Counted from the first letter of the stretch, positions 31,398 to 60,584 are shown. The stretch is 64,000 nucleotides of DNA from Candidatus Amesbacteria bacterium GW2011_GWC2_45_19 (GCA_001001555.1 LCKS01000002.1:7074-71073); one strand, 5' to 3'. A program made the numbers and translations. Notes: generated by a model from the sequence alone, not told the origin.

Positions 31398-31474
31398 GTC
31401 TACGGGGACTCGTGGCGCAGCTGGTCAGCGCGTTTCGTTGACATCGAAAAGGTCAGAGGTTCGAATCCTCTCGA
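31398..31474 (+). tRNA. tRNA-Val (anticodon GAC), CCA encoded
   Basis: Hand-folded cloverleaf: acceptor GGACTCG/CGAGTCC, D-arm GCGC-AGCTGGTCA-GCGC, anticodon loop TTGACAT, T-arm AGAGG-TTCGAAT-CCTCT. Confidence 0.85.
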
Positions 31475-31486
31475 GTCCACCAAAAT

Positions 31487-35773: not shown

Positions 35774-36738
35774 CCGAACGCACAAGGAGAGACCTTGTGC
35801 GCGTGACGGTGGTGGTTACGGTTTTGAATGAAGAAGCCACAATCAAGTTTCTTTTGGATGCTTTGATTAGACAAACCAGAAAGTCCGATGAAATTATTAT
35901 CGTCGACGGCGGGTCAACAGATCGCACCGTGGAAAAGATTAAGAAATATAAAGAGATTAAGTTACTAAGAAAATCTGGAAATAGGTCGGTAGGCAGAAAT
36001 TACGGCATGAGCCAGTCTAAGGGCAACATCATCGCCTTTACCGACGCTGGTTGCATCCCCGAACTAAATTGGCTCGCAGAACTAATTAAACCTTTTTATA
36101 AAAAACTCCCCTCTCCTGGCCAACGGCCCGAGCGAAGCGAGAATTTAGGAGAGGGGCAGGGGGTGAGGTACGGGAGAGTGGAGGTTGTTTCTGGCTACTA
36201 CAAAGGTCTTTCTCAAAATATTTTTGAGAAATGTTTGGTCCCTTATGTCTTGGTCATGCCGGATAAAATCCCGGCTGAATTTTCCCCTTCCACCCGCTCC
36301 ATGGCCATGCGCAAAGGAGTGGGACTCTTCGATGAAAAGCTAAGCCATAACGAAGACTATGCTTTTGCCGTGGCGTTGAGAAAAAAAGGCCTGGAATTTT
36401 ATTTCGCCCCCAAAGCAATGGTGGGCTGGATGCCGTGTAAAAATTTGCGCCAGGCGGCCTGGATGTGGTTGCGCTTTGCCATAGGCGACGCCCAGGCCGG
36501 AATTTTGCGCCCCAAAGTCAAACTCTTATTCCTGCGCTATTATGTATTTTTCTTCCTCTTTTTCCTTAATCACTTATTTATCTTAATCTCTTTTCCCTAC
36601 TTGCTTTGGGCCGTGGCTAAAAATTACCGCTACGTCAAAGATCTGCGGGCGTTTTTCTGGCTGCCCGTACTGCAGCTGACTACGGATATGTGCGTCATAT
36701 TTGGTACTATTATGGGAGTCTTGTCCCGATCTAAATGA
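35761..36738 (+). CDS. glycosyltransferase family 2 (carrying an in-frame palindromic-element insertion)
   Basis: VTVVVTVLNEEATIKFLLDAL...IIIVDGGSTDRT...FTDAGC GT2 motifs; 36106-36170 element encodes LPSPGQRPERSENLGEGQGVRYG. Confidence 0.75.
   Translation: MAKMTERTRRDLVRVTVVVTVLNEEATIKFLLDALIRQTRKSDEIIIVDGGSTDRTVEKIKKYKEIKLLRKSGNRSVGRNYGMSQSKGNIIAFTDAGCIPELNWLAELIKPFYKKLPSPGQRPERSENLGEGQGVRYGRVEVVSGYYKGLSQNIFEKCLVPYVLVMPDKIPAEFSPSTRSMAMRKGVGLFDEKLSHNEDYAFAVALRKKGLEFYFAPKAMVGWMPCKNLRQAAWMWLRFAIGDAQAGILRPKVKLLFLRYYVFFFLFFLNHLFILISFPYLLWAVAKNYRYVKDLRAFFWLPVLQLTTDMCVIFGTIMGVLSRSK
36106..36170. repeat. CCCTCTCC hairpin-family element inserted in frame in a GT2 gene
   Basis: CTCCCCTCTCCT ... AATTTAGGAGAGGGG ... 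GGGTGAGGTA shares the AATTTAGGAGAGGG and GGGTGAGGTA blocks with the 6855-6915 copy. Confidence 0.7.
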
Positions 36739-38683: not shown

Positions 38684-39768
38684 AAATCGCTCTATTTCAT
38701 AATCTTCCACCGGGTGGGGCCAAACGCACAGTCTATGAACAAGTTAAGCATTTAAGTCAAAAACACGAGCTGCGTCTTTTTCAATTATCCAATACCAACG
38801 AGGATTTTTTGTCGCTGTACCCCTTCGTAAAATCAAAAAAAACTTATCCTTTCTCCCTTTCGTCGAACCGTTTACGAGCCGACTATCAGAAATTTTTTGT
38901 CCTGCCCCAAATCCATCGTCGCATGGCTCAAGATACCGAAGGTGCCGACGTCGCCCTCATCCACGCCGACCTCTATACCCAGGCTCCGCACATCTTATGT
39001 TTTCTGAAAATCCCCAGTTTGTATTTTTGCCAGGAAATGCTGCGCATTGCCTACGAACCGGAATTGGCCTTTACCGACCGCGTCTCATTTCCCAAAAGAT
39101 ATTACGAAGTTTTAACGCGCCAAATCAGAAAATTCGTAGACAGGTCAAATGCCCAATCCGCCTCCATGATTTTAACCAACTCCGGTTTTACGGGGGCAAA
39201 AGTGCAAAAAGAATTTAATAGACCGGCCCTTACCTGTCATCTGGGTGTCGATCCCCAGGTTTTTTACCCCCAAGACCTGCCCAAAAAAACCCAGGTTCTC
39301 TTCATCGATCAAAAAGACAAAATTTCCGGTTACGATTTTGTTCTCCAGGTCCTAAACTTAATCCCCCCTCAAAATCGGCCAAAATTAAGGATCCTAAGTT
39401 TTTCCAAAGGCGCGCCGGCCGTTTTGCCCCAAAACATGGCCAAATATTACTCCGAGTCGCTGGCCACCCTCTGTACCAGTTACAACGAACCGTTCGGACT
39501 GGCTCCCATCGAGTCCATGGCCTGCGGAACTCCGGTTTTGGCCGTTAACGATGGCGGATACCAGGAGACGGTTTTAGACGGCCTCACCGGTTGGCTGCTT
39601 CCGCGAGATCCAAAAGCTTTTACCAAAAAAATCGCTTTTTTACATCGTCATCCTCAAAAAGCTCATCAAATGGGTCTTGCCGGTCGAAAACATGTGATCA
39701 AAAACTTTACTTGGGCCAAACATAACTCCATCGTCGAATCAGCCCTATGCCATCTCGCGTCTCGATAA
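38680..39768 (+). CDS. glycosyltransferase family 1 (GT4)
   Basis: EPFGLAPIESMACGTPVLAVNDGGYQETV motif. Confidence 0.8.
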   Translation: MKIALFHNLPPGGAKRTVYEQVKHLSQKHELRLFQLSNTNEDFLSLYPFVKSKKTYPFSLSSNRLRADYQKFFVLPQIHRRMAQDTEGADVALIHADLYTQAPHILCFLKIPSLYFCQEMLRIAYEPELAFTDRVSFPKRYYEVLTRQIRKFVDRSNAQSASMILTNSGFTGAKVQKEFNRPALTCHLGVDPQVFYPQDLPKKTQVLFIDQKDKISGYDFVLQVLNLIPPQNRPKLRILSFSKGAPAVLPQNMAKYYSESLATLCTSYNEPFGLAPIESMACGTPVLAVNDGGYQETVLDGLTGWLLPRDPKAFTKKIAFLHRHPQKAHQMGLAGRKHVIKNFTWAKHNSIVESALCHLASR

Positions 39769-41447
39769 TTATCGTCAAATACCGGGCGGCCGCAGAATTA
39801 GCTGCTTGTTTACCCAGTCTGAAAAAATATCATGTCATCATCGTCGACAACGACAAAATAAACCGGGGTTATGCCGCCGGCAACAATCTGGGGGCTAAAA
39901 GTGCCAAAGGGGAATACTTGCTCATTCTCAATCCGGACACGGTCGTTTCCCCCGGCGCCATCGAATTATTAGCCACTTTTCTGGACACTCATCCCCAAGC
40001 CGGAATTGTCGCTCCGTTTCTTCTTGACCCAGCCGGCCGGCCCTATCCTTTGCAAGGCACCCGGGAGCTCACGCCCCTCACTGGTCTGGTCGCTCTCTCG
40101 TTTCTGAACCAGATTCCTAATCCCATTTCCCGCCATTACTGGCTGGCCGATTGGGACAAACGCCAGCCGCGCCAAGTAGACGTCGTCCCCGGCACAGCTT
40201 TTCTTATTCGCAAGCAAATTTATGACCAACTCGGCGGATTCGATGAAAACTTCTTCCTCTATTTTGAAGAAGCCGATCTCTGCCGCCGTGTCCGGCATGC
40301 GGGCTGGGAAATTTACATGTATCCGCCGGCCAAAATTATGCATTACTGGGGCGCCAGTACCCCAAAATCTGCCCGTATCCAGGCCATTTTCTCCGCTTCC
40401 CGTTTTTACTACTTTCGCAAGCATTTCGGCCTGCTTTGGGCCATCGTAGTCCATCTCGTTTGTTCTTTTTCTCTCCTCTGGCTGGCGGTTATTTTAGGAG
40501 CCGCCCTGCGTTTCTACCGGTTTCCTGGCCTTATGCCCTTTATCGGCGACCAGGCCTGGTACTATTTGGCCGCCCGCGACGCTCTTCTGGGCGGGAGATT
40601 GCCCTTGTTGGGCATCACCGCCAGCATCACCTGGCTACATCAAGGCCCACTTTGGACTTATCTCCTGGTTCCCTTGATTGCCCACCCCGTCCTCCCAGCC
40701 ATCCTGACCTCAATCATGGGCGTGGTCTCCGTTTATTTAATTTACTTCCTAGGTGGCTGGCCAGCCTCTCTGCTATTAGCCGTTCTGCCATTAGCCGTTC
40801 TCCAATCCCGCATGCCCTACCACACATCTCTCATTCCTCTATTTTCTATTCTCTTTCTCCTATTTTTACGTCGTCATAAAGATTTCCTCGCCGGCCTCTT
40901 CCTCGGCTTCCTCTATCAATTGCACCTGCTCACATTCATCTTCTGGCCAATTATGTTTTGGCGCCGCCGCCTCATCCCCGGTTTTATTCTGGGGATTCTC
41001 CCTTTTTTACTAGTGGGACCAGTCCAAACATTTGGAATTCTCGCCTGGATCGCCAAGCATTCTCTCGCCGGTTTCGGCGGCTCCACCATCTCCACAGCCT
41101 ACCTCGTCGTCCTCCTCGTCCCCGCCATCCTCGTTGTCTCTTGGTTTCTCAATCGCCTTCCAAAGTTTATCGGGATTTTGATAATTGTGATTTATTTGGG
41201 ATTTAGTTATTCGAATTTAGATATTGGTTCATCTTTATCTAGCAGAATCGTTCTATCTAAAGCAATTTTGAGGGAGAGCGGCACTGACGCTCCGGAAATT
41301 GTCATGTCCGGTCCCGGTTCCAAATTTCGCTCCTACTCCATGCCCTACGAATACCTCGTCTGGTGGCTGTCCCGTTCCACCTCTCCAGAGGGCTCTCACA
41401 CAAAATTCCTTATCCATGAGTCCTCTCAAACTTTCGAACAGCTTTGA
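39747..41447 (+). CDS. GT2 glycosyltransferase fused to a C-terminal polytopic membrane domain
   Basis: N-terminal VSIIIVKY...DNDKINRGYAAGNNLG...LLILNPDTVV GT2 core then about 300 aa hydrophobic domain. Confidence 0.7.
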   Translation: MPSRVSIIIVKYRAAAELAACLPSLKKYHVIIVDNDKINRGYAAGNNLGAKSAKGEYLLILNPDTVVSPGAIELLATFLDTHPQAGIVAPFLLDPAGRPYPLQGTRELTPLTGLVALSFLNQIPNPISRHYWLADWDKRQPRQVDVVPGTAFLIRKQIYDQLGGFDENFFLYFEEADLCRRVRHAGWEIYMYPPAKIMHYWGASTPKSARIQAIFSASRFYYFRKHFGLLWAIVVHLVCSFSLLWLAVILGAALRFYRFPGLMPFIGDQAWYYLAARDALLGGRLPLLGITASITWLHQGPLWTYLLVPLIAHPVLPAILTSIMGVVSVYLIYFLGGWPASLLLAVLPLAVLQSRMPYHTSLIPLFSILFLLFLRRHKDFLAGLFLGFLYQLHLLTFIFWPIMFWRRRLIPGFILGILPFLLVGPVQTFGILAWIAKHSLAGFGGSTISTAYLVVLLVPAILVVSWFLNRLPKFIGILIIVIYLGFSYSNLDIGSSLSSRIVLSKAILRESGTDAPEIVMSGPGSKFRSYSMPYEYLVWWLSRSTSPEGSHTKFLIHESSQTFEQL

Positions 41448-41465
41448 AGGGCCACGCCTTTTTGA
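41446..41465. repeat. REP-like palindrome (left flank of RAYT): GAAGGGCCACGCCTTTTTGA
   Basis: Inverted copy of 42168-42200; core AAGGGC-CAC-GCCTTT hairpin. Confidence 0.75.
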
Positions 41466-41477
41466 TATAGTTAGACC

Positions 41478-42167
41478 ATGCCAGCCAAAAATACCAGAAA
41501 ACAATTCATAGAAAACTCTTATTATCATATTTACAACAGAGGAGTCGAAAAACGGCAAATATTCATGGACGATATGGATTATTCAGTATTCATTTCATAC
41601 TTAAAAAGTTACTTGCTGCCCAAAAGCGAAGAGTTTTTGCACGGCATATTTTCAAATGAAAGTTCGACACCCAAGCAAAAGGCCGACGCCCTCAAACTAT
41701 TAAGGCTTAATAATTTCTCTGAGACAATTTCACTCACTGCCTACTGCCTGATGGGTAACCATTTCCATTTTTTGGTTAAACAAACTATGGCAGACGGTAT
41801 TGATAAATTCATGAATTCGTTGATGACTAGGTACACCATGTATTTCAATCGCAGACACAAGCGGGTCGGCCATTTGTTCCAAGGAAATTACAAAGCAGTA
41901 TTGGTCGAGACTGAAGCGCAGTTACTGCACCTCACCCGCTATATCCATCAAAATCCAGCCTCGAAAGGCCACGCCTTTCAAACTCATCCATACTCATCCT
42001 ATCAACAATATGTTTCGTCAGCACGCCTCGAATGGATAAAACCAGATGAAGTTCTCAACTATTTTTCCAAGCAAGGCTTTAATTCATACGCAGCTTTCGT
42101 TGGAGATACTCATATTTACGATTCTTTGATGATCATCTCCGGATTAACTTTAAGTGAATCAGACTAG
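41478..42167 (+). mobile_element. REP-associated tyrosine transposase (RAYT, IS200/IS605 TnpA-like HUH Y1 enzyme)
   Basis: YHIYNRGVEKRQIF, HUH motif YCLMGNHFHFLV and catalytic-Tyr region RYIHQNP; flanked by inverted REP hairpins; contains one REP copy internally (41963-41983). Confidence 0.8.
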
Positions 42168-42200
42168 ATCAAAAAGGCGTGGCCTTTCAAACCTTTCAAA
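42168..42200. repeat. REP-like palindrome (right flank of RAYT, inverted orientation): ATCAAAAAGGCGTGGCCTTTCAAACCTTTCAAA
   Basis: Reverse complement matches 41446-41465 with one mismatch; AAAGGC-GTG-GCCTTT hairpin. Confidence 0.75.
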
Positions 42201-42225
42201 CTTTCAGAAGTGTTAAAATGATTGT

Positions 42226-42978
42226 ATGTTAACTGGGATTGTGCTCACTCATAACGAAGAGAAGAATATTGCCCGGTGTTTGGAATCCTTAAAATTTTGC
42301 GACGCGGTTTTAGTGGTTGACAGCGGTTCAACAGATAAAACCATGTCTTTGGCCAAAAAAGCCGGAGCCACAGTTGTTAACCATCCTCTGGATGGCAACT
42401 ATGCTGCCCAGCGCAATTGGGCTCTCTCCCAAGCCAAAACTCCCTGGGTGTTATTTGTGGACGCCGACGAAATGGTTTCCGTCAAATTGGGCGAAGAGAT
42501 CACATCCGCCGTCAAAAAAATCGAATACAAAGGGTTTTTAATCCCCCGGATAGATTACATGTGGGGCAAGAAGCTGTCCCACGGAGACGTGGGCGGAGCT
42601 AGATTCTTGCGTCTAGCCCGCCGCGGAGCCGGCGAGTGGCACGGCGCGGTTCATGAAACCTGGGCCATCGAGGGCAACATAGGGACACTCAAGCACCCCA
42701 TCTTTCACTATCCTCACCCTACTCTAGTTGAGTTCTTGCAAGAGATTAACCGCTACTCTTCCATCCGGGCCCAAGAACTCCACCGCGCTGGCCAGCGGGC
42801 CAATTTATTCCAAATCATTCTTTACCCATCGGCCAAATTTTTGTGGCTTTGGATTTGGAAATTGGGATTTGCGGATGGTACCACCGGTTTTGTCCACGCC
42901 ATGACCATGGCCTTCTACAGTTTCCTGGTTAGGGGTAAACTATGGTTATTTCAAAAAGGAGTAACGTCCCCCTCTTAA
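42226..42978 (+). CDS. glycosyltransferase family 2
   Basis: IVLTHNEEKNIARCLESL...VVDSGSTDKT...FVDADE GT2 motifs. Confidence 0.8.
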   Translation: MLTGIVLTHNEEKNIARCLESLKFCDAVLVVDSGSTDKTMSLAKKAGATVVNHPLDGNYAAQRNWALSQAKTPWVLFVDADEMVSVKLGEEITSAVKKIEYKGFLIPRIDYMWGKKLSHGDVGGARFLRLARRGAGEWHGAVHETWAIEGNIGTLKHPIFHYPHPTLVEFLQEINRYSSIRAQELHRAGQRANLFQIILYPSAKFLWLWIWKLGFADGTTGFVHAMTMAFYSFLVRGKLWLFQKGVTSPS

Positions 42979-42990
42979 GGTAAGAGGGGG
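42968..42990. repeat. perfect hairpin CCCCCTCTTA-agg-TAAGAGGGGG overlapping the GT2 stop codon (CCCTCTCC family variant / terminator-like)
   Basis: 10-bp perfect stem, 3-nt loop read from sequence, followed by GGGGGTG as in other family members. Confidence 0.7.
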
Positions 42991-44756: not shown

Positions 44757-44827
44757 GCCTCCTTAGCTTAGTGGTAAAGCGGCGGTATCGTAAACCGCGG
44801 ACGCTAGTCCGATTCTAGCAGGAGGCT
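44757..44827 (+). tRNA. tRNA-Thr (anticodon CGU), no encoded CCA
   Basis: Hand-folded: acceptor GCCTCCT/AGGAGGC, D-arm GCTT-AGTGGTA-AAGC, anticodon stem GCGGT/ACCGC loop ATCGTAA, T-arm GCTAG-TCCGATT-CTAGC (unusual C at position 55). Confidence 0.65.
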
Positions 44828-45095
44828 CTGCGCCTCGTCCTCGCAGAGCGAGAGACGGGCGGCACAAACTTATGTATACCGTCTACGTTTTAAAAAGTCT
44901 GAAAGATGGAAGGAAAATATTAGAAGAACCAAACAATTCTATATCAGTCGATGATTATATAGCCGCCAGATGGGGAGAAAAAAAGCATGTAGGTCAGTCT
45001 ACCCCCACTGGGTTGAAGTAGACACACCAAACAAAATTATCATTGTCACCCGCATCAAGCACTGTAAAGACGTGTACAGATAGCACAGATAGCAG

Positions 45096-45120
45096 CTTTG
45101 AAAGGCCACGCCTTTCAAAG
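45096..45120. repeat. REP-like palindrome CTTTGAAAGGC-CAC-GCCTTTCAAAG
   Basis: Perfect 11-bp arms; same family as RAYT flanks; overlaps the stop region of the 45115-46248 gene. Confidence 0.8.
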
Positions 45121-46248
45121 CCCCTCCACCTCCGGAAGCTCCAGGGGTTTGATCTCTTGAAGTTCTCTCCCTGTTACGGCCTGCAATTCACCATACATCC
45201 CGTGAGTGTTGTCGATAATCTTGCGCAATTCCTTTTCCTGCCTCGCCCATTTCAGATTAAACCAGCGTTTTTCTTTCTCTATATCTCCCTGCAAATTATT
45301 AAAAGCCTCGACAATGGCTTCAATCCTGTGAGTAAACTCCACACTCCTTAGATATTGGTACAGCACCTCCATTTTTTCATTTTTTCCCACATTAGCCAAT
45401 TTTTCAAAATGGATATGGATTAAATCAAACCGCAGAGCCATCGCCAACCCCCTGGCGGATTTTAAGGTTGTTACCCAAACATTTTCTCTGTAAACAAACG
45501 TCTCGATGTCTTCGGGAGGATTAGCTACCACCAAAACTGCCAGTTGCGCCCCGGCTGCTCTTTGATCTTCCCTTAATTTCTTCAGCCACCCGTCGCTCCA
45601 TTGCGCGTTTTTAGACTCCCATAAGATCATTCCGCATTCACGGCCCAGCTTATCAACCACCGTTTGGGAAATATCTGCGCCCCGTTCTCCTTTCTTAATT
45701 TCGGCTATCCTGTCTTCGGGAAACTCTCTCCTCAAGGTTTGTTCCAGCCCCAATTCCATCACTTCTCCTTGGCCTTGTTGGGATCCCTGCTCTAATTTGC
45801 GCTTCAGCTCATCGTTCATTTTTAATGCATCTTGCAGTTTCTTGTCTTTTTCAGCGTCTTTTAATTGATGCTCTTCATCGGCTTTTTTCCTGGCCTCTTG
45901 CCGTATTTTATCTTCCTCTTCGGCTAGTTTTTTCTGCATTTCCAGCTTCGCGTCATCTTTTTCCTGCCTGGCTTTGCGCAGTTCTTTCGTTAAATCTCCC
46001 AATTGCTCCTGCAGCTTTTTATTTCTTTCCTTCTCATCCACCTCCGCCTCCTGCAACCGTTTGATAGCCGACTCAAAATCAGCCTTGACCTTTGCGGCGG
46101 TCGTTTCTTCGGCTTGCCGGCGGGCGGCTTCTAAATCCTTTTGGTGTTTAACTCTTTCAGTTTGCAGAACCTGTTCGGAAATTTGATGTTCCAAAGCCTC
46201 GGAAATTTCAATCTCCTGCCCGCAATTTTTACATTTAATAGTGCTCAT
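45115..46248 (-). CDS. Zn-ribbon / coiled-coil / C-terminal PD-(D/E)xK-like nuclease-fold protein (DUF2130-like)
   Basis: N-terminal CxxC...(KCKNCGQ), long E/K-rich coiled coil, C-terminal GADISQ...ILWESKNAQ resembling D...ExK restriction-endonuclease-like motif. Confidence 0.4.
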   Translation of the reverse strand: MSTIKCKNCGQEIEISEALEHQISEQVLQTERVKHQKDLEAARRQAEETTAAKVKADFESAIKRLQEAEVDEKERNKKLQEQLGDLTKELRKARQEKDDAKLEMQKKLAEEEDKIRQEARKKADEEHQLKDAEKDKKLQDALKMNDELKRKLEQGSQQGQGEVMELGLEQTLRREFPEDRIAEIKKGERGADISQTVVDKLGRECGMILWESKNAQWSDGWLKKLREDQRAAGAQLAVLVVANPPEDIETFVYRENVWVTTLKSARGLAMALRFDLIHIHFEKLANVGKNEKMEVLYQYLRSVEFTHRIEAIVEAFNNLQGDIEKEKRWFNLKWARQEKELRKIIDNTHGMYGELQAVTGRELQEIKPLELPEVEGL

Positions 46249-46249
46249 A

Positions 46250-46903
46250 TCAAGGCACTTCCACTACTCCCTCCAGCCCCACGGGCAGATCTTTTAGCTC
46301 ATCAGCCGTTAAATCCACTACCCAGTCTCCACCGGCCAGCATTTTCGGCAAGCTCGCCTGGCCAAAGATCTTTTTGCCCAATTTTGGTAAATCAACCGGC
46401 AACTTCACCGGGTTGGCAAATCTCCGGCATTCATGAGGCTCAATTTTGATCCGGAAAATCACAGACACCGTGTCCAAAATTATCACCGAGTTAGCCGCCG
46501 GAGCAACATTCAGTCCCACCGCGCACCCGCCCATATCCAAAATCACTCCCGCCACCGGCGAAGTCAAATCGGCCTGATCCAGGCGGTATTTGGCCTGCTC
46601 CACTTCTTTAACCGAGGCGTCTAAGCTCGCCTGTTGGCTGGATTTATTGTACCGGGTAATGTCATCCCCGGGATTTTTAAAGCGGATGTTAAATATCTCA
46701 AAATCCGCCCGCACCTGCTGGTTTTGGGCCAATTGCCGGTCCAAATCCGCCTGCAGTATCTGCCGGTCCAGCGAGGCGATAATCTCGCCCTTGCTCACGC
46801 TGTCGCCCGCGTTTTTGCGCAAACTCACCAGTTTTCCGGAGAAGGCAAATCTGGTTTCCACGTTCCGCCCCCACACCTGTCCGGAAAATTTATTACTGGC
46901 CAT
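46250..46903 (-). CDS. truncated HlyD/RND membrane-fusion-protein-like periplasmic adaptor (no N-terminal TM)
   Basis: Biotinyl-lipoyl-like halves (GKLVSLRKNAGDSVSKGEIIASLD; LTSPVAGVILD) and beta-barrel segment; only 217 aa. Confidence 0.5.
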   Translation of the reverse strand: MASNKFSGQVWGRNVETRFAFSGKLVSLRKNAGDSVSKGEIIASLDRQILQADLDRQLAQNQQVRADFEIFNIRFKNPGDDITRYNKSSQQASLDASVKEVEQAKYRLDQADLTSPVAGVILDMGGCAVGLNVAPAANSVIILDTVSVIFRIKIEPHECRRFANPVKLPVDLPKLGKKIFGQASLPKMLAGGDWVVDLTADELKDLPVGLEGVVEVP

Positions 46904-46915
46904 AAAATTACTATA

Positions 46916-47554
46916 TCATGGTTTACAATCTGATCCTTTGACAAATCCGGCTGCCCGCGCTTCTTTTTCGTTGCAAAACCACCCATCGCCTAAATATAAC
47001 TGCACGACGGTATTACCGTATTGTCCGCAACCAGGGTAGCGGTAAAACTTGGTCTCTTTTCCCTGCTGACCAATATTACCTTTGATATTGCACTTGGGTT
47101 GAATAGGATTTACATCTTGGGTACAGCCGGCGCCAAATATTCCTAAGGTACCGGCTCGGGCTTTCTCTCCTGCCTTCAGTAATTCATCTGCGTTAGAATC
47201 CGTGCCTCTGGCAAAATACGCCCAACCCTGCTCCAACATCTTTTTATTGACATAAATATTTCCCGCATATACTTGGCTGACCAGGCGTTTAAATTTATCA
47301 TTAAACACCACTTTTATTTGCAGCCGCTTCCCCAAAATCAACTTCTCCAGAGCTTGTTTGGCTTCGGTGCCGCCGCAATATTTCAACTCCGGGGCATCTA
47401 CACCGGCCAGGCGGACAACCTGTTTTTCCTTGGTTTCAAAAGTGTCCCCGTCTATCACTCGGGCAACCTGATATGTGGTTTTCAAATACACCGCTGCGGC
47501 TAAAACCACCGTCCCTACCACCCCCGCCATTATCTTCCCTTTCATTTTTCCCAC
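46916..47554 (-). CDS. membrane-anchored thermonuclease (SNase family) with Cys-rich C-terminal domain
   Basis: N-terminal TM; VIDGDTF...VRLAGVDAPEL SNase motif; C-terminal CNIKGNI...YRYPGCGQY...WFCNEKEARAAGF domain. Confidence 0.75.
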   Translation of the reverse strand: MGKMKGKIMAGVVGTVVLAAAVYLKTTYQVARVIDGDTFETKEKQVVRLAGVDAPELKYCGGTEAKQALEKLILGKRLQIKVVFNDKFKRLVSQVYAGNIYVNKKMLEQGWAYFARGTDSNADELLKAGEKARAGTLGIFGAGCTQDVNPIQPKCNIKGNIGQQGKETKFYRYPGCGQYGNTVVQLYLGDGWFCNEKEARAAGFVKGSDCKP

Positions 47555-47577
47555 CCTTCTAGTCTAGCACACAACCG

Positions 47578-48276
47578 ATGTATACTATCAAACAGGGAAA
47601 TGCAAACTTTATGAATAAAGAAGTTACCAAGATAACTAAAATCGCGATCTTCCAAAACAGGAAAATCCGTAAAACCATTTATCAGAATGAATGGTGGTTT
47701 GTGATCGAGGATGTAGTTTTAGCACTAATTGATTCAAATGACTCAAAGCAATATATTCAGCGCATGAGACTTCGTGACCCTGAGCTTTCCAAAGGGTGGG
47801 TACAAATCGTACATACCCTTTTAATGGAAACCAGTGGTGGTAAGCAGAAAATGAATTGTGCTGATACTGAGGGTGTTTTTAGGATTATCCAATCAATCCC
47901 TTCTCCTAAAGCAGAACCTTTTAAAAGATGGTTGGCCAGAGTTGGATATGAAAGGGTACAGGAGATAGAAGATCCGGAGCTTGCCCAAAAAAGGGTCACA
48001 TCTGAATATAAGAAAATAAAAGGACTCAAGCGTCAAAACCTGCGTGACCATATGAATGATTTGGAGCTGCTATTTTCTCAGCTTGGTGAAGCAGCAACCA
48101 CAGAGATTACCAAAACAGATCATCCTCAAGGGTTTAAGAAAAATAAGCAAGTCTCAAAACGTGGAGGTAAAATTGCCGGAGACGCCAGATCCAATCTTGA
48201 ACGCGAAACTGGAAGAAAAGTAATTACCTCGCAAAATTATTTACTTAAGAGACAGAATAAGAAACTTTTAAAATGA
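47578..48276 (+). CDS. Bro-N domain protein (DinD/antirepressor-like)
   Basis: IAIFQNRKIRKTIYQNEWWFVIEDVVLAL resembles Bro-N; AT-rich gene. Confidence 0.45.
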   Translation: MYTIKQGNANFMNKEVTKITKIAIFQNRKIRKTIYQNEWWFVIEDVVLALIDSNDSKQYIQRMRLRDPELSKGWVQIVHTLLMETSGGKQKMNCADTEGVFRIIQSIPSPKAEPFKRWLARVGYERVQEIEDPELAQKRVTSEYKKIKGLKRQNLRDHMNDLELLFSQLGEAATTEITKTDHPQGFKKNKQVSKRGGKIAGDARSNLERETGRKVITSQNYLLKRQNKKLLK

Positions 48277-48977
48277 ACAAATTTTATTTAGAAATTTTAG
48301 AAGCAATTAAACAAAAGGCTAAAAAAACAAAGCAAACCTCGGAGACATCCGGATATTTGGGACATAGGCATTTCCATTATGGATTAAGTGTTCCCCAGAG
48401 AAGGGTAATAGCTAACGCATGGATTAAAAATAATAATGCTATTTCTCTAACAAAATTTATAACTCTGTTAGACCTTCTTTATCGAGGAGACTCTTACGAA
48501 GAAAAATCTATGGCCGGATTGCTTCTGGGATATTTACCAAAACTTAGAAGACAATTGAATCCTAAATTATTGGATAACTGGCTTAGTTACTTGGAAGGTT
48601 GGGCTGAAATAGATTCTACTTGTCAGTCCAATTTCACGGCAGATGAAATCCTACTTAAGTGGAATGATTGGGAAAAATTAATTAAGAGTTTTGCTGACAA
48701 TAAAAGCGTTAGTAAGAGAAGAGCGAGCTTAGTATTATTAACAGGAGTTGTTAATAACTCGAATGATAAAAGACTTATCGGTTTGGCTTTTGAAGTTATA
48801 GATAAACTAAAATCTGAGAGAGATATTTTAATTACAAAAGCCGTCTCTTGGCTTCTAAGAAATTTAATCAGACACAATAAAATCAGAGTTGAAAAGTATC
48901 TCGACGAAAATTTAGACTACTTACCCATTATAGCAATAAGAGAAACTAAAAATAAACTTAGAACTGGCAAAAAATAG
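48273..48977 (+). CDS. DNA alkylation repair protein (AlkD/AlkC-like HEAT-repeat glycosylase family)
   Basis: C-terminal KAVSWLLRNLIRHNKIRVEKYLDEN resembles the DNA_alkylation family signature; overlaps upstream gene by 4 nt. Confidence 0.5.
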   Translation: MNKFYLEILEAIKQKAKKTKQTSETSGYLGHRHFHYGLSVPQRRVIANAWIKNNNAISLTKFITLLDLLYRGDSYEEKSMAGLLLGYLPKLRRQLNPKLLDNWLSYLEGWAEIDSTCQSNFTADEILLKWNDWEKLIKSFADNKSVSKRRASLVLLTGVVNNSNDKRLIGLAFEVIDKLKSERDILITKAVSWLLRNLIRHNKIRVEKYLDENLDYLPIIAIRETKNKLRTGKK

Positions 48978-49244
48978 ATAAAAGATTCAATAATTCTATT
49001 ATTCTACTGGCGGGGTACTTTTAACGCTAAAATAATAAGATGATACAGTTTTATAGCACAGTTAAAAGTTAGTTCGACCCCCGTCAGGGTATAAGGTTAT
49101 GGGATTAAATTTTGGCAAACTTTAGAAACTTTCCGAAGCTAAAATCCACGAGTTCGATAAAATTTCTATGGAGCTAGTTTTTGAAAAAGTTCGCACTGAT
49201 TTTCGAGATTCTCCGTGATGCTGCTGGCTCCCGCCTTCGCTGCC

Positions 49245-49295
49245 AGCTTCGGCCGTGCAGGCCGGCTCGGCTGCGGCCTCGCCTCCGCTTATTTT
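49245..49295. repeat. GC-rich structured element A (GCTTCGGCCGTGCAGGCCGGCTCGG...) in AT-rich island
   Basis: CGGCC-loop-GGCCG hairpin; related copy at 53121-53185; sharp GC spike in a ~35% GC background. Confidence 0.55.
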
Positions 49296-49493
49296 TTGCG
49301 CCCGAGATTATGCTCGCTAACGCGAGCATATTTTACTAAAATTTCCATTGGAATGGAAACTTTTGGCTTTGCCCCACCCACCCGTGCGTGCCAACGTAAA
49401 ATACATTGATAAGACTCCCTCTCCAGCCTTACTATTGACAGGAATTATTTTTTATGTTAAATATAGTTAAATCTGACTTAACTAAAATATACA

Positions 49494-51239
49494 ATGAAAA
49501 AAGTTAACAATACTAAAATTTTATCGACTGCAGAGGCTAGTCGTTTATTGGGGCTAACCCGGCAAACGTTATATAAACTCGCGGAAAAAGGTGAACTACC
49601 GGGGAAAAAGATCGGCAGAAATTATAAGTTCTTCGAGCAAGATATTTTAAGCTATATTCGCCTCCATAAAAAGCTTCCGAAATATAAAGAGTGGGAATTA
49701 AGAGCAGATTTTGCTACTGAAGGGATTAAGAAAATGGCAAAACGTACTTTTCAAGGTCTTTCATCAAATATTGAAGAGCTAATTGCAAATTCATATGATG
49801 CTGATGCAACTTCCGTAAGGATTGTCATTAATAACGACAAAGGAACGTTGAGCATAATTGACAATGGTTCAGGGATGGATGAATCTGCGCTTGCTTCTTT
49901 TGTGAAGTATGGGAAGAGTGATAAGGACTCAGATTACCGTTCTCCAAAATTTGGACGGTCTCCGATTGGCGAATACGGAATGGGCGGAAAGCTGGCAATA
50001 ACTAATATTTCTAGACGTTGCAAGATAATTACAAGAAGAAACGGTTATGAGCACATATTTAACATGAATCGTGCAGACCTCGATAAGGCTAAGTATATAA
50101 GTGATGTCAAAAGTAGGGTGCTGACCAAAAAATGCAGTAAGAAATACCACGGTACTGAAATATACATGGAAGATTTGTTTACGAAAACTATCGACAGTGA
50201 AAGGTTGCAGGAGAGATTTTCTACAAAAATGCCATTAAGTCAGAATTTTCAAATCGTTATGGTCGTCATTCGAAATAATGAAAAAAAGGAACAGACAGTA
50301 AGCGAACCTATTTTTGAATATGAACGAAAATTCGACTTTAGTGACGATCTTCCAAAAATAGGGAATGTTAAGATGTCTATTTATTTCACTAAAGAGCCTA
50401 TAGCGGCTACAAAACAAGGTGTATGGACAAAGGTAAATGGGAGAATAGTTAACGAAAAAGCTGAGTGGTTTGATTTGTTTCGAGCAACCTCCGGTACGAG
50501 ATATAGATATAGGTTATTCGGGTATGGTGAGGCTGATGGTCTGAAAGACTATGTGACTTTTTCTAAAAACGATTTTATCGACTGTCCCGAATACAATGAG
50601 TATTGGGAATTTGGTCACAAAAATATCTTAAAGGTACAAAATACCCTTCTTCGTGATGACGAGAACATTAAAAAGGAGCAAGATAGAAACCTAGTGAAAG
50701 ATGTTGAGAAAGAAGTGAACGATATTGTCTCGAAATTAGATGACCCCGCCACATTAGGTGTTCTTGAGGCGAAAATAAAGAAGGAGTTTACGAAGGAAAA
50801 GGAAAGTGCTCCTGAAGCTCCTTATCCAAATATAGATGTTATTGAAAAAGAGGCAGAAAAAGTTGTTTCCGTAGTCAAAAGAGGAAAAGATAAAAGAGAA
50901 AGGCGAAACCAGTCCATAGCCCCTAGTGAAAGAGTGTCATACTCAGGTAGAAATTATGTAATAACACCAGTCGATCTTTCTGAAACAGGGGACATTGTCA
51001 AATTTACTAAAGAAATGAACTTAATAGAAATTAACGAGAAGCATCCCTTGTACGTTAAAGCATCTAGAAACAGCTCATTAGATGATTTAGTTAGAAGTCT
51101 CGCATTTACAGAAATTGCTTACGACTACAGCGAAGGGGACTTTGTTAGTTTTGACGCTGTATTTAATGAATTAGCTAGAATTGCGTCAAGGCGGGTTAAA
51201 TTAATTGGTATGGAAGATCTAACAGCTAGTAGCGGGTAA
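49494..51239 (+). CDS. HTH (excisionase/MerR-like) fused to GHKL/MORC-like ATPase (HATPase_c_3) protein
   Basis: N-terminal HTH (STAEASRLLGLTRQTLYKLAEKGELPG); Bergerat-fold boxes ELIANSYDADA (N-box), IIDNGSGMD (G1), GEYGMGGK (G2); 581 aa. Confidence 0.6.
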   Translation: MKKVNNTKILSTAEASRLLGLTRQTLYKLAEKGELPGKKIGRNYKFFEQDILSYIRLHKKLPKYKEWELRADFATEGIKKMAKRTFQGLSSNIEELIANSYDADATSVRIVINNDKGTLSIIDNGSGMDESALASFVKYGKSDKDSDYRSPKFGRSPIGEYGMGGKLAITNISRRCKIITRRNGYEHIFNMNRADLDKAKYISDVKSRVLTKKCSKKYHGTEIYMEDLFTKTIDSERLQERFSTKMPLSQNFQIVMVVIRNNEKKEQTVSEPIFEYERKFDFSDDLPKIGNVKMSIYFTKEPIAATKQGVWTKVNGRIVNEKAEWFDLFRATSGTRYRYRLFGYGEADGLKDYVTFSKNDFIDCPEYNEYWEFGHKNILKVQNTLLRDDENIKKEQDRNLVKDVEKEVNDIVSKLDDPATLGVLEAKIKKEFTKEKESAPEAPYPNIDVIEKEAEKVVSVVKRGKDKRERRNQSIAPSERVSYSGRNYVITPVDLSETGDIVKFTKEMNLIEINEKHPLYVKASRNSSLDDLVRSLAFTEIAYDYSEGDFVSFDAVFNELARIASRRVKLIGMEDLTASSG

Positions 51240-51297
51240 ATACCAGACAGTTATTAGTTATATTTTCGTAACAAAATAGAAACTAGTTAAAAAGATA

Positions 51298-52413
51298 ATG
51301 ATCAAAGGCATTTTTCCAAACGAAAAAATTTTGACAAGGGGCCGTCTTCATGATGACGATTCGATAGATGTACTTAACTTTCCAACTCGCGTACTAAACA
51401 CCTTAGTAATGCACGACTATGAGACCGTTGGACATTTTTATCGCGTGTCGATGGCTGATTTGGGAAGGATAAGAAATATTGGAACTAAGACATTAAAGTA
51501 CTTTGGAGAAGTCAAAGCAGCAATAAAAGAACATCGAAAAGAGCCTGATCTGCCGCCACTAGAAACCGCGAAGTCAAAGGAAGCAAAGCCTTCAAGTTTT
51601 GTGCCTTATTTGACAGAAACTGAAAAAGAAAGAATGAAGTTGGTTAAGAGACTCTATGACGAGTATGGCACTCTAGAAAAAGTGGGAAGCCTGCTGAGAC
51701 TGTCAAGAGAAAGAGTTAGACAAATATTAAATAAAGGTCAAAAATATGGCCTTTTCACTTACCAGTTAACCCGAGATAGAAAATTTGATGAAGTGCTAAA
51801 CAAGATAGATGGGGAACGGCTAAGGGTATTACTTAGTACTACCAAAAATCAATTTGATGTTTGTTCGAATTTGGGGATAGATATAAGTACTCTTCAAAGG
51901 TTGATTAAATATTATAACATTGATCTCGTGTCCTATAAACAGGATGCTAGATATAAGAGATACTTAGTAGAATACTCCGAGATGGTTCGCGTACTTGGAT
52001 ATCATCCATCTACCACCATTATGCAGCGCCGCAAGGAATGGAGGAAAATATGGGCGGGTATTGTTAGGCTGTGGGGAAGTTTTGATCGATTTAGAGCAGA
52101 GTTTGGTATCGAAAAACCTAAACACTCTATGCACCCTAACACCTTAAAAGCTTGGCAACGAGCAAAGGAAAGAAGAATGGCGCATAAAAAGGAAAAAGTC
52201 GAAAACGTATACAAAATCATCGCTGAGCATGGTCCTTTAACTTGCAAAAAAATTTCCTACCTGGCAGGGTATAGTGATCAAATTGTCTATCAATATGTAA
52301 AAGATATGGTTAAAAAAAATAAGATTAAAAAATTAGGCAAAGGAAATAGAATTAAGTACGGATTAAATATTCAAAAAAATTATATTAAGCAATCAAAAAA
52401 CTATGCACACTAA
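51298..52413 (+). CDS. DNA-binding protein with RNAP alpha-CTD-like HhH and sigma70-region-4-like HTH
   Basis: LNFPTRVLNTLVMHDYETVGHFYRVSMADLGRIRNIGTKTLKYF (alpha-CTD-like); LSRERVRQILNKG (sigma70 r4-like); 371 aa. Confidence 0.4.
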   Translation: MIKGIFPNEKILTRGRLHDDDSIDVLNFPTRVLNTLVMHDYETVGHFYRVSMADLGRIRNIGTKTLKYFGEVKAAIKEHRKEPDLPPLETAKSKEAKPSSFVPYLTETEKERMKLVKRLYDEYGTLEKVGSLLRLSRERVRQILNKGQKYGLFTYQLTRDRKFDEVLNKIDGERLRVLLSTTKNQFDVCSNLGIDISTLQRLIKYYNIDLVSYKQDARYKRYLVEYSEMVRVLGYHPSTTIMQRRKEWRKIWAGIVRLWGSFDRFRAEFGIEKPKHSMHPNTLKAWQRAKERRMAHKKEKVENVYKIIAEHGPLTCKKISYLAGYSDQIVYQYVKDMVKKNKIKKLGKGNRIKYGLNIQKNYIKQSKNYAH

Positions 52414-53059
52414 TGACGAAATTAAAGAAACTATTTTAAAATGTCTATATGAGCATGTTCAAAAATCTAAAGGACCTTCCGGTATTCCGATGGGGATACG
52501 AGATTTAACCTCGGCAGTCAAATCCAAAATTGACGTTAAGCAACAGGTAGTTAGTTCTAACCTACATTCATTAATAAAAAACGGGTTTGTGGATGAGAAG
52601 GAGGTTCAAAATCCTTACGCTGCCGCTAAGTTTAACAGCAAGCCCGCTGTTAAATATGAACTCTCGAGAGCCGGAATTAGTTATTTTGATCAAGGTTCAA
52701 AGTTTGATCTGGCAGATAGAAACACAGGTATAAACATTCAAATGTTAAACAGCGCTGTGGTTATCGGAAATCAAAACATAGTCAAGAATATTGTGAGGGA
52801 GGAATATAAAGAGGGTTACTTGAAACTTGAGGAACTTGGGAAAAGAGTCAACTTATCTTCTGATATAAAAAATGAAGACAAAGTGAATTTGCAAGCTGAC
52901 ATTGAAACCATTAAAAACCAACTTGCGAAAGTTTCTCCAAACCACAATATTGTAAAAGCAGCTTTAGCAAGCCTATCAGGATTAGCTGATATATCTCAGT
53001 TATCTTCTCATTATGAAAGCGTCAAGAATTGGATTCTTTCCATCTTGGGCTTTAGTTAA
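52403..53059 (+). CDS. hypothetical protein (possible wHTH N-terminus)
   Basis: 218-aa ORF overlapping upstream gene by 11 nt; no recognised motif. Confidence 0.35.
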   Translation: MHTNDEIKETILKCLYEHVQKSKGPSGIPMGIRDLTSAVKSKIDVKQQVVSSNLHSLIKNGFVDEKEVQNPYAAAKFNSKPAVKYELSRAGISYFDQGSKFDLADRNTGINIQMLNSAVVIGNQNIVKNIVREEYKEGYLKLEELGKRVNLSSDIKNEDKVNLQADIETIKNQLAKVSPNHNIVKAALASLSGLADISQLSSHYESVKNWILSILGFS

Positions 53060-53120
53060 AAATTTTTGCATTTTCTCGTTTGAACACAAGGGAAAACACA
53101 GTTTGAGCCGATGTTTGCGG

Positions 53121-53185
53121 AGGCTTCGGCCGTTAGGCCGAGCCGGAGCCTGGGTGCGAGGCCGCGAGGCAGCCGAGCTTGATCA
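53121..53185. repeat. GC-rich structured element B (GCTTCGGCCGTTAGGCCGAGCCGG...)
   Basis: Shares GCTTCGGCCGT-N-AGGCCG-N-CGG core with element A. Confidence 0.55.
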
Positions 53186-53279
53186 CAGGGAATTTTCCCG
53201 AAAATCAGTTCGAACTTTTTCAAAAATCAGCTCAAAAGTCCTAAATTTTGAGTTGGTAACGATTAAAAGGTAAGTAGTT

Positions 53280-54167
53280 TCAAGATATGTTTCTTGTAAT
53301 TGTTTTCATTTTAAACATTTTTGTATCTATCAAAAACTCATACCCCGTTAATTTTAGCCATAGGTTAATGTTTTCTGTCAGTTGATACATTGGTACACCC
53401 AGATGACTAACCAGACTCCGATTAATCTTATAGGTTTTAAGTGCTTCAGCCTCATGATATTTAGGAATGTCTGGAAAATCTAAAACTTGATATTTATCGT
53501 CTTTCACTCTCCTTAAGAGTAAAAACCTGTCAGGATAATTTTTGTTCTCCTTGTTAACCTCACTACCCCTAACTAACCTGTATTTATTTTTAACATCTTT
53601 ATCTTCAGAAGGGAGAAAGATATTTTCAATTTTCTGCACGTCACTCACATCTCTAAGTCTTTTCAATAATTCAATAACTGCAATGATTTGATCATTTTCA
53701 AATTTTTCTGTGATAAGGGGGTTTTTCAAAATATTTTCGAGGTTCGATTCGTACGCCTCCCAAGTTCTGAATATTTGAAATCCAAAAAAGGTATTTGTTT
53801 CCAATAATTTGTTTATATCTTTTAAGCTTATAGATAAAAATTTGGACACACTACTTTGGCTATAATCTAACTCTTCCAGTGGATAAAAGAATTTCATGAG
53901 TTGATATACTATTCCCAAAACCTCTCTATCAATCTGCATTTTTCCGTACTCAAATATTTCTTGATTTAGTTTTCTGTTGGAAACACTCTTTATCAGTTCA
54001 TAAGAAATTAGGATTGCCGTAATAGCAATTAACGAAGCAGAAATATTAATTAAAAGATCTCTAATGTTTCCATTAACATATTTGCTTAGGCAATATATGA
54101 AAATGCCTGTTAGAAAAGATACAAAATAGGGCAACATAGTATAGAAAAAGCTTTTTGGAAATTTCAT
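53280..54167 (-). CDS. hypothetical membrane protein (2 N-terminal TM + cytoplasmic domain)
   Basis: 295-aa ORF, AT-rich, no known motif. Confidence 0.4.
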   Translation of the reverse strand: MKFPKSFFYTMLPYFVSFLTGIFIYCLSKYVNGNIRDLLINISASLIAITAILISYELIKSVSNRKLNQEIFEYGKMQIDREVLGIVYQLMKFFYPLEELDYSQSSVSKFLSISLKDINKLLETNTFFGFQIFRTWEAYESNLENILKNPLITEKFENDQIIAVIELLKRLRDVSDVQKIENIFLPSEDKDVKNKYRLVRGSEVNKENKNYPDRFLLLRRVKDDKYQVLDFPDIPKYHEAEALKTYKINRSLVSHLGVPMYQLTENINLWLKLTGYEFLIDTKMFKMKTITRNIS

Positions 54168-54313
54168 ACCCTAATTATAAATCAAGTTGTGTTGGTGTTA
54201 TACTCGGATTACCGAATGACCTCTGTGGTGAAGGTATCTTACTTTTAGAGAACTGATGGCACGAAAGTGATCCATCTTAGCCACAGAGATCGCATACAAA
54301 TAGGTATCAAAAT

Positions 54314-55950: not shown

Positions 55951-56065
55951 GTCCGACTCCGGTATCGGGTATTCAAAACTTCCAGGCTAACTCAAAAAAG
56001 CAAAAAAACCTGGCTCGAACCAGGTTTCTAGGCTAAATTTGCTAAAATTTCAATTCATTACGGTA

Positions 56066-56139
56066 TGGAGCGGGATACGGGAATCGAACCCGCTTCTTCT
56101 GCTTGGGAAGCAGATATACTACCGGTGTACTAATCCCGC
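56066..56139 (-). tRNA. tRNA-Gly (anticodon CCC), CCA encoded
   Basis: Reverse-complement fold: acceptor GCGGGAT/ATCCCGC, D-arm GTAC-ACCGGTA-GTAT, anticodon stem TCTGC/GCAGA loop TTCCCAA, T-arm GCGGG-TTCGATT-CCCGT. Confidence 0.8.
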
Positions 56140-60546: not shown

Positions 60547-60561
60547 TATGTCAAACTAGGT

Positions 60562-60584
60562 CAAAAAGGCCACGCCTTTCAAAA
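60562..60584. repeat. REP-like palindrome CAAAAAGGCCACGCCTTTCAAAA
   Basis: Same GGCCACGCCTTTCAAA core as RAYT flanks; intergenic between helicase and polX. Confidence 0.75.

Follow-up and report, generated by a model that had tools for sequence, protein, structure and literature searches.

The Y1 gene and its product

The DNA analysed here, called the window throughout, is a stretch of 64,000 nucleotides (nt) from Candidatus Amesbacteria bacterium GW2011_GWC2_45_19 (GCA_001001555.1, LCKS01000002.1:7074-71073). It contains a gene for a 229-aa protein of the HUH/Y1 type, accompanied by copies of a short hairpin, which an original prediction made from the sequence alone had taken for a complete system of RAYT (REP-associated tyrosine transposase) and cognate REP (repetitive extragenic palindromic) sequences. 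The features of the locus are collected in Table 1. The host belongs to the Microgenomates, within the Patescibacteria, a lineage of the candidate phyla radiation (CPR) with reduced genomes, the latter as had been supposed; the Y1 protein and its neighbours are identical to proteins of groundwater Candidatus Amesbacteria (GW2011_GWA2_47_70 and GW2011_GWB1_47_26).

Table 1. Coordinates of the Y1 gene, its repeats and associated features in the window
Feature	Position	Strand	Description
Left copy of direct duplication	41421..41438	+	CCTCTCAAACTTTC-GAA; duplication of the 3' end of the upstream membrane GT2 (glycosyltransferase) gene
Left terminal inverted repeat	41440..41471	+	32-nt arm; hairpin 41447-41461, AAGGGC-CAC-GCCTTT, one mismatch
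HUH/Y1 gene, 229 aa	41478..42167	+	ATG start; TAG stop 42165-42167
Internal in-frame hairpin	41960..41982	+	CTCGAAAGGC-CAC-GCCTTTCAAA; in the linker directly after the Tyr motif
Right terminal inverted repeat	42163..42194	-	hairpin 42173-42187, loop GTG on +; overlaps TAG stop 42165-42167
Right copy of target duplication	42192..42210	+	CCTTTCAAACTTTCAGAA; runs into the ancestral gene end, intergenic, next GT2 ATG (42226)
Solo copy	45095..45121	.	perfect 12-bp-arm palindrome GCTTTGAAAGGC-CAC-GCCTTTCAAAGC
Solo copy, 3'-end type	60553..60583	+	AAACTAGGTCAAAAAGGC-CAC-GCCTTTCAAA; intergenic
tRNA genes (Rfam)	31406-31479, 44757-44827, 56069-56139 (-), 59148-59222		

The gene encodes a protein with the Y1 fold and the HUH and tyrosine catalytic motifs. 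In the translated open reading frame (ORF) the HUH motif is N94-H95-F96-H97 (nt 41757-41768) and the catalytic tyrosine is Y155, within R154-Y155-IHQNP (codon 41940-41942). HIYNRG and L133-F-Q-G are also present and, after the linker, the SS motif P171-Y-S-S-Y is followed by a C-terminal helical tail. The three motifs by which the protein had been recognised (HIYNRG, NHFH and RYIHQNP) are all as described, and YIH.NP is found in most Y1 homologues. The Pfam family Y1_Tnp matches the ORF with an E-value of 1.3e-10 (41.9 bits versus a cutoff of 23). When the AlphaFold2 model of the protein (predicted local distance difference test, pLDDT, 87.7; predicted template modelling score, pTM, 0.85) was submitted to Foldseek, the best solved match was 4ER8, the E. 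coli RayT with a REP hairpin (E 2.4e-4), followed by the ISDra2, IS608 and IS200 transposases. The model ends in short C-terminal helices; a Pfam search up to E 0.1 for a helix-turn-helix (HTH)-like C-terminal domain (Bac_DnaA_C, HTH_23 or HTH_28) returned Y1_Tnp only. A tblastn search of plasmids gave genes of only 24-38% identity, annotated 'transposase' or unannotated, which was of no help for sub-classification.

Hairpin repeats and promoter of the gene

Inverted repeats of 32 nt flank the gene on both sides; they are based on a hairpin with a 6- to 10-bp stem and a 3-nt loop. The two arms are 91% complementary, with the hairpin core AAAGGC-CAC/GTG-GCCTTT. A search of the window for the core, AAGGCCACGCCTTT, with up to two mismatches gave six matches versus 0.69 expected by chance. 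Four of them are exact (41965, 42173, 45102 and 60566) and one, at 41448, has a single mismatch (left arm AAGGGC); the core at 42173 lies on the minus strand, so that its loop reads GTG on the plus strand. With a 23-nt palindrome as query, the count was five versus 0.00 expected. All five copies are thus where they had been placed; the bracketing of the gene also stands, save that the repeats are longer than the hairpin by which they had been defined. The sixth core match (2717, two mismatches) was taken as chance, and so was a possible fourth degenerate copy at 41677-41697 (70% match), a poor palindrome in a segment conserved at the protein level. Rfam, run on the whole window, found only the four tRNAs of Table 1, and the hairpin fits no described RNA family.

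Inside the gene, the core AAA GGC CAC GCC TTT codes for K163-G-H-A-F167, in a block that is a lower-confidence loop of the AlphaFold2 model (pLDDT 70). Folded as single-stranded DNA, this internal copy is of moderate stability (-6 kcal/mol, z -3.6).

The 5' hairpin fills the spacer of a predicted promoter. A promoter scan gave, at 41444-41471, a -35 element TTGAAG (41444-41449), a 16-nt spacer and an extended -10 element TG-A-TATAGT (9/12 with the TG), i.e. TTGAAG-16-TGATATAGT, the -10 element ending at 41471, 6 nt before the ATG. The left inverted-repeat segment and its inner flank, TTGATATAGT, are conserved in three of the related or homologous loci compared (all labelled with L-numbers; here L007, L009 and L012). 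Elsewhere among the lineages, a TATAAT-like hexamer likewise comes after the 5' hairpin, 6-9 nt ahead of the ATG. This arrangement suggests that the Y1 mRNA would be leaderless and that binding at the position of the hairpin would be repressive. Genes here often lack a Shine-Dalgarno sequence and have, 6-9 nt ahead of the start codon, a TATAAT-like hexamer that is frequently TG-extended (41466-41480, 60592-60612, 42212-42228 and many other loci), suggesting that leaderless transcripts may be common in the Amesbacteria lineage. A terminator scan did not call the flanking hairpins as sense-strand terminators.

The three-hairpin layout across lineages

Three copies are common to L007 and L009, whose proteins are 79-86% identical to that of the window, and to L012, a 68% homologue in a different context. 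They occupy the same places: about 30 nt before the ATG, in-frame after RYIHQNP, and over the stop. The unpaired loop changes in step, being GTG in all three copies of L012 (KGVAF) and CAC in all three of L007.

The trace of the internal hairpin is visible in the proteins. Among the 120 closest homologues, 112 have [K/Q]-G-x-x-x after the tyrosine. The outer residues of this block pair as a reverse-complement rule predicts, since Q-L (51), K-F (33) and K-L (25) occur and Q-F is absent (0). At the fourth position 109/120 have A, P, S or T, the residues specified by the four NCC codons, which are complementary to GGN. In a stem test on 80 metagenome loci found with the family alignment, a perfect stem of at least 6 bp was present in 20.7% of the post-Tyr segments versus 2.8% of the other 72-nt stretches of the same genes. 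The hairpins themselves differ widely from lineage to lineage, e.g. GCAAGGC-GAG-GCCTTGC, TGCAGGGC-CAG-GCCCTGCA, GCGAGGT-CCG-ACCTCGC and TTCGGGAG-T-CTCCCGAA. With at most one mismatch allowed, the internal hairpin was found again in its own 5' flank at 17 of 22 loci, in its own 3' flank at 17 of 22 and in both at 15 of 22; hairpins taken from the other loci matched in 9/442 and 6/442 cases (about 2%). Among 15 sequences picked by protein motif alone, compensatory changes were counted at the innermost pair (CG 6, AU 4, UA 2), and the covariation score was 0.179; shuffled controls scored 0.099, with 2/500 reaching the observed value, and slid controls did not exceed 0.096. Judged from these comparisons, the three-copy layout recurs in many homologous loci, each lineage having its own hairpin, matched among its copies.

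The Y1 family as a whole is very large. Of 8,000 candidates scored in a 90%-clustered database, more than 7,800 proved significant, and a 50%-clustered library held 23,355 representatives at E <=0.001, 9,889 at <=1e-10 and 250 at <=1e-30. The internal palindrome as a trait of this whole 23,000-cluster family was ruled out: the pattern [KQ]G.[APST][FL] was found in only 10/127 of the 150 most diverse representatives, and in distant relatives (~35-42% identity) the linker is short and contains no hairpin. The palindrome is therefore a trait of the close subfamily and of some other lineages with other hairpin types. The copy inside the coding sequence, which had been listed as one more member of the repeat set, is there, but far from being incidental it is conserved in-frame throughout the subfamily.

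Two oddities were revealed by the homologous loci. At L147 (273-789) a homologue 62% identical over residues 1-158 meets a TGA directly after the internal hairpin, and is without the C-terminal part and the 3' copy; a deletion between the internal and 3' hairpins is possible. L133 and L155 each hold two divergent Y1 paralogues within 12 kb (46-56% identical to the query), the gene being thus not always single-copy.

Dispersed solo copies

Solo copies were sought over ~82 kb of the same 185-kb contig, made up of the window, 10 kb on its right and 8 kb on its left. Five were found at four loci, or about one solo locus per 20 kb: two in the window and three more, all exact, in the 10 kb to the right (L215:15620, 15658 and 19995); the 8 kb on the left had no hairpin copies. 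No second copy of the Y1 gene was present in these 82 kb.

A minus-strand DUF2130 gene (45115-46248) has its TGA stop (45115-45117) within the solo copy at 45095-45121. The position of this copy (given before as 45096-45120) and the overlap with a gene stop had been seen correctly, but its arms are of 12 bp, not 11. As single-stranded DNA it forms a strong hairpin (-13 kcal/mol, z -7.9), and it has 27 nt in common with the internal copy of L007. A tRNA gene, at 44757, lies ~270 nt before it. The copy at 60553-60583 is intergenic, as had been stated for 60562-60584: it starts 7 nt past the stop of a DEAD-box helicase gene, and PolX follows 27 nt further on. Its non-palindromic flank, ACTAGGTCAAAAAGG, also occurs at the 3' ends of Y1 genes, and a degenerate copy is found at the orthologous site upstream of PolX in L007 (18481). 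On the right extension, L215:15620 and 15658 are a direct tandem pair, 38 nt apart, after gatB, and 19995 follows rplS. The pair, ~5 kb past the right end of the window (L215 15620-15710), is a direct tandem duplication of a 38-nt unit consisting of the hairpin and CAAACTTTTTACACTAACAGTA.

Copies were also found in other genomes: in L106 (Microgenomates Gr01-1014_16, a 4.2-kb contig), in L111 and L119 (two contigs of a Patescibacteria bin), in L114 (another Amesbacteria bin, next to a tRNA) and in L213. The hairpin is thus a dispersed family and not unique to the window, as had been anticipated. L106 has four copies in the same orientation (429, 1771, 2137 and 3714), all in narrow intergenic spaces, a density far above that of the window; each is preceded by a tandem TTGAYAYR..TTGATAYA, a motif that on the other strand reads as an extended -10 promoter. 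The solo copy of L114 (5500-5760) lies downstream of a stretch that is tRNA-like by eye and carries 22 nt (GGCCTTTCAGAGTTATCCACAT) identical to the coding sequence after the internal hairpin of L012-type genes; it resembles a piece of a Y1 gene more than a mobilised unit.

Across lineages, solo copies of a locus's own hairpin outside the gene were found at 0.36 per 10 kb, versus 0.015 for foreign hairpins, i.e. ~24 times more often. In most solo copies the hairpin is accompanied by the inner, non-palindromic flank found in the inverted repeats of the gene (A-C/T-T-A-G/T-R-TCAAAAAGG...), and some include the last Y1 codons (60553 in the window; L009:11846). With hairpin and inner flank together, the unit that is repeated is therefore asymmetric, measures ~35-40 nt and matches the gene ends identically. 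The solo units sit at the 3' ends of genes.

The insertion site in the glycosyltransferase cluster

The Y1 gene lies between a membrane GT2 gene and the genes for a 250-aa GT2 and Wzy. The same slot is occupied in L007 and L009; in L012 the gene lies elsewhere. The presence/absence check in relatives, which had been proposed, yielded an empty site in L211 (250-aa GT2 78% identical), where the two GT2 genes are 5 nt apart, while L213 (an 82% relative) has an MFS gene and a dehydrogenase gene at the site instead. When the uninterrupted gene end of L213, CAAACCTTCGAAGTGTTAAAATAA, is taken as reference, its first part is found left of the unit and a full copy on the right, which makes an 18-nt direct duplication. 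As its present stop, the upstream GT2 gene (39747-41447) uses a TGA from the repeat arm. Diverged duplications of this kind are also seen in L009 (~27 nt) and L007 (~39 nt), and the one in L009 encloses the series REP-gene-REP-NUDIX-orf-REP. Comparison of the aligned sites identifies the whole ~0.75-kb unit as an insertion, which some related genomes have at this site and others lack. If the duplicates recombined, the unit could be lost precisely.

The unit had been thought to interrupt a polysaccharide locus. It is indeed inserted between two glycosyltransferase genes, but the event is old: a recent insertion disrupting the cluster was ruled out, the slot being common to relatives at 79-86% identity, the duplications diverged and the upstream gene end functional. 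The neighbourhood of the slot varies. L009 (10690-11875) has a NUDIX gene and a 111-aa ORF between two direct 3'-end units, each with the last Y1 codons; L007 (10764-11210) has a NUDIX gene after the Y1 gene; and the window has no NUDIX gene there. From this pattern, a cassette appears to have been gained or lost at the repeat.

Comparison with known systems

TnpAY1 proteins fall into classes, of which class 2 (Y---NP) holds the RAYTs (Quentin et al. 2018, PMC6006769). Of the traits that define RAYTs (class 2 TnpAY1), the Y1 fold, Y---NP, the inverted flanking palindromes and an over-represented dispersed palindrome were found; the REP_Tyr_transpos cutoff, the GT[AG]G foot and the inverted doublets were not. 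The comparison with the REPtron of the E. coli RayT/TnpAREP (4ER8; Nunvar 2010; Ton-Hoang 2012; Messing 2012, PMC3479197) illustrates both sides. The two have in common the HUH/Y1 fold, the single tyrosine in Y---NP, and inverted palindromes that bracket the gene and are also dispersed downstream of genes. Unlike E. coli RayT, the Amesbacteria protein has 229 aa versus 165, with a sequence similarity below phmmer detection; its hairpin is without the GTAG foot, with stems of 6-12 bp and a 3-nt loop; its units are singlets, far fewer in number and without arrays of BIMEs (bacterial interspersed mosaic elements) or REPINs (REP doublets); its gene has an in-frame internal copy; and its host is a member of the Patescibacteria, not of the Proteobacteria.

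By eye comparison of motifs, the closest type is the long subclass 2.1, or TIRYT. Subclass 2.1 proteins have a median of 238 aa, NH[YF]H, FQ (or W[EQ]), Y[IV]H.NP and the SS motif (PMC6006769, Table 1), and the Amesbacteria protein has 229 aa, NHFH, FQ for WQ, YIHQNP, SS and a C-terminal tail. This subclass is Group 1 of Bertels and was equated with TIRYTs by Quentin et al. (PMC6006769); it probably corresponds to the TIRYT/TIRtron of Di Nocera et al. (2013, PMC3733652), i.e. Y1 genes with terminal inverted repeats (TIRs), some of which are self-complementary and moderately repeated. As in TIRYTs, the inverted repeats overlap the gene ends, the right one lying over the stop codon. The low density on the Amesbacteria contig agrees with the only ~12 genome-wide occurrences of Group 1 flanking 16-mers (Bertels et al. 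2017, PMC5581495). Some traits do not fit. The consensus GGGGWSAS, present in the majority of described TIRYT cases, is absent from the Amesbacteria TIR, AGCTTTGAAGGGCCACGCCTTTTTGATATAGT; Pfam finds no HTH/DnaA_C-like C-terminal domain; and whereas subclass 2.1 was reported to be without REP-like structures (PMC6006769), the Amesbacteria TIR core is a hairpin, dispersed and also present inside the gene.

In-frame REPs within tnpAREP, generally between HuH and Y, were called unique to subclass 2.4 (PMC6006769), the Group 4 of Bertels. The likeness is that of a cognate palindrome lying in-frame in the gene, in a peripheral variable region of the protein. Unlike the subclass 2.4 cases, the Amesbacteria copy lies after the Y motif (K163-F167), is a short hairpin matched to the two flanks and has a near-universal counterpart in the close subfamily (112/120), and the protein motif is FQ, not WQ. 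With the IS200/IS605 TnpA proteins (IS608, ISDra2) the Amesbacteria protein shares catalytic fold and motifs, and recognition of DNA hairpins at the ends is the established mode of that family. The elements differ in most other respects: IS200/IS605 have Y---Q, a protein of ~130-150 aa, many identical copies and often tnpB, with asymmetric subterminal hairpins, no TIRs and no target duplication, whereas the Amesbacteria unit has 32-nt TIRs and an 18-nt duplication. Full-text literature searches brought up no relevant report of REP/RAYT in candidate phyla.

Which system is it?

We conclude, with a probability of roughly 0.7, that the locus holds a RAYT-like unit, i.e. a gene for a class-2 HUH/Y1 nuclease-ligase of single-stranded DNA with its cognate hairpin repeats, of the subclass 2.1/TIRYT-like kind and not a canonical RAYT. 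What sets the locus apart is its conserved triple hairpin, at promoter, coding linker and stop region, the copies of which evolve in concert. The claim of a complete RAYT/REP system is thus kept in part: the HUH/Y1 protein is of the class that contains RAYTs, but the equivalog score, the missing foot and doublets and the low density set it apart from canonical ones.

Several results weigh against this conclusion. Of the two profile searches that had been proposed, that with Y1_Tnp was above its cutoff, but the RayT equivalog of NCBIfam, NF047646 (REP_Tyr_transpos), reached 42.7 bits for a cutoff of 80. With phmmer, the single Y1 sequence had no match to PDB sequences even at E 10, and a profile of 67 homologues matched only ISDra2 TnpA (E 0.05, HUH and Tyr aligned); it is therefore the fold search that connects the protein with RayT. 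The aligned copies have no GT[AG]G foot, the stem-adjacent bases being TTTG/CAAA or TCAA/TTGA, and no inverted doublets were seen, solo copies being singlets save for one direct tandem pair. Copy number is modest, as sampled over only 82 kb of the genome. A genome-collection scan with the 17-nt pattern RAAAGGCCACGCCTTTY gave, among the matches listed, mostly single chance matches in unrelated bacteria, those in L106, L111, L114 and L119 being the useful ones. The flanking hairpins are short and weak as DNA (-1.8 and -4.4 kcal/mol), no better than shuffles. Loop orientation flips independently of the flanks, which makes strand-specific recognition of the loop doubtful. Duplications of 18-39 nt of the target gene end are not a known product of a Y1 transposase, and IS200/IS605 elements are not known to make any target duplication. 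Finally, binding and cleavage are predicted from what is established for the family.

Some of these results also count against a canonical domesticated RAYT, which like E. coli RayT or those of Pseudomonas Groups 2/3 would be single-copy, immobile, vertically inherited and would only spread REPIN doublets. The class-2 Y---NP motif, RayT as best fold match, the inverted flanking palindromes, the solo palindromes downstream of genes, the one slot shared by three species-level relatives and the one gene copy in the window are all what such a gene would show. With an equivalog score far below cutoff, no foot, a direct tandem pair as the sole doublet and about one solo locus per 20 kb, the palindromes do not behave as a REPIN population, and a gene unit that is present or absent at a site, with a target duplication, and whose 68%-identical homologue (L012) has the same ends in a quite different context, does not look immobile. 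The NHFH, FQ and SS motifs and the length of 229 aa moreover fit subclass 2.1, not 2.2 or 2.5 (PMC6006769, Table 1). We hold a canonical RAYT to be quite improbable.

Terminal inverted repeats, a flanking direct duplication and an empty site in a relative would suit an autonomous insertion sequence (IS), either of the IS200/IS605 kind or a TIR-bounded IS with a Y1 enzyme, of which the solo hairpins would be decayed ends or derivatives resembling miniature inverted-repeat transposable elements. The gene-proximal flank, last codons included, carried by solo units and the two paralogues within 12 kb in L133 and in L155 also go in this direction. Yet those paralogues are divergent (46-56% identity) and not fresh copies, no identical extra gene copies exist in 82 kb of contig, and one slot was kept while the protein diverged to 79% identity. 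In addition the motif is Y---NP instead of the Y---Q of IS200, the protein is ~80 aa longer, IS200/IS605 ends are asymmetric without TIRs or target duplication, and there is no tnpB, the neighbours being glycosyltransferase genes. An autonomous IS is, for us, improbable. The least credible reading, to which we give hardly any weight, is that the hairpins serve the host in regulation (as terminators, insulators or a palindrome bound by some protein) and are unrelated to the Y1 protein. Copies do sit at gene 3' ends, the T-runs of the flanking copies point into the gene, and the arm TTGAAA doubles as a -35 element. However, the same hairpin is in-frame inside the gene, and its sequence varies by lineage while the three copies of a locus stay matched, unpaired loop bases included; a generic terminator would not co-vary with the coding sequence of one gene, and no Rfam family matches. 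Flanking hairpins acting as simple terminators were likewise ruled out by the in-frame copy and its co-variation with the flanks.

Proposed mechanism and implications

For the RAYT-like unit that we favour, a mechanism can be proposed by analogy with characterised HUH enzymes. The Y1 protein would bind the hairpin as folded single-stranded DNA and probably read the adjacent conserved flank; it would then cleave beside the hairpin via a 5'-phosphotyrosine link and rejoin the ends. Such cycles of cleavage and rejoining might spread short units and, rarely, the whole gene unit. With the 5' hairpin in the spacer of the gene's own extended -10 promoter, binding of the protein would auto-repress its synthesis. 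The internal copy could be a second self-recognition site, or could be continually homogenised with the flanks by Y1 activity.

We also entertain, tentatively and with the odds rather against it, the idea that the in-frame hairpin is a functional cis-element, not a hitch-hiker, through which the gene would serve its own product as substrate or operator, the three matched hairpins forming a self-recognition circuit in a large clade of Y1 genes centred on the Patescibacteria. If so, the Y1 gene could be auto-repressed, and the enzyme might delete or switch its own C-terminal domain (the homologue of L147 ends exactly after the internal hairpin); alternatively, all copies might be replaced in concert when specificity drifts. 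Self-control of a transposase by such means would be without a described example among HUH enzymes.

RAYT/REP is the classic example of a domesticated transposase that lives with short repeats of its own, and was characterised mainly in Proteobacteria. A related system is common in the tiny genomes of candidate phyla, which extends to the Patescibacteria a mostly proteobacterial kind of system. As each lineage has its own hairpin, with promoter, coding and terminal copies matched, the family is a natural experiment and offers a direct sequence-level handle on the co-evolution of Y1 enzymes and their targets; through the matched hairpins, both auto-regulation and the homogenisation of the copies could be tested simply. 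Where they are scattered, the units lie at the 3' ends of genes and at the borders of variable blocks of genes, and may matter for rearrangement and cassette exchange in reduced genomes.

Neighbouring features of the contig

A second, unrelated palindrome family, CCCYCTCYT-loop-ARGAGRGGG, is present in the window at 6867-6889, 36109-36155, 42968-42990 and 61495-61517, and elsewhere in L007 (5595-5617 and 19404-19455) and L216 (4804). In the copy at 42968, the loop contains the TAA stop codon of the gene for the 250-aa GT2; the copy at 61495 is in-frame in the PolX gene, and L007 has a copy at the orthologous PolX position. It looks like a second REP-like family with in-gene copies.

The two solo hairpins of the window bracket a 15-kb segment (45095-60583, compared with L007 14400-18520) whose genes include DUF2130, Bro-N, DNA alkylation repair and HTH_17/HATPase, as well as a weak, below-cutoff match to a predicted pPIWI-associated nuclease. 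An SNase-BSH gene pair is inverted and moved relative to L007. The hairpins may thus mark rearrangement breakpoints of a variable, possibly defence-related block.

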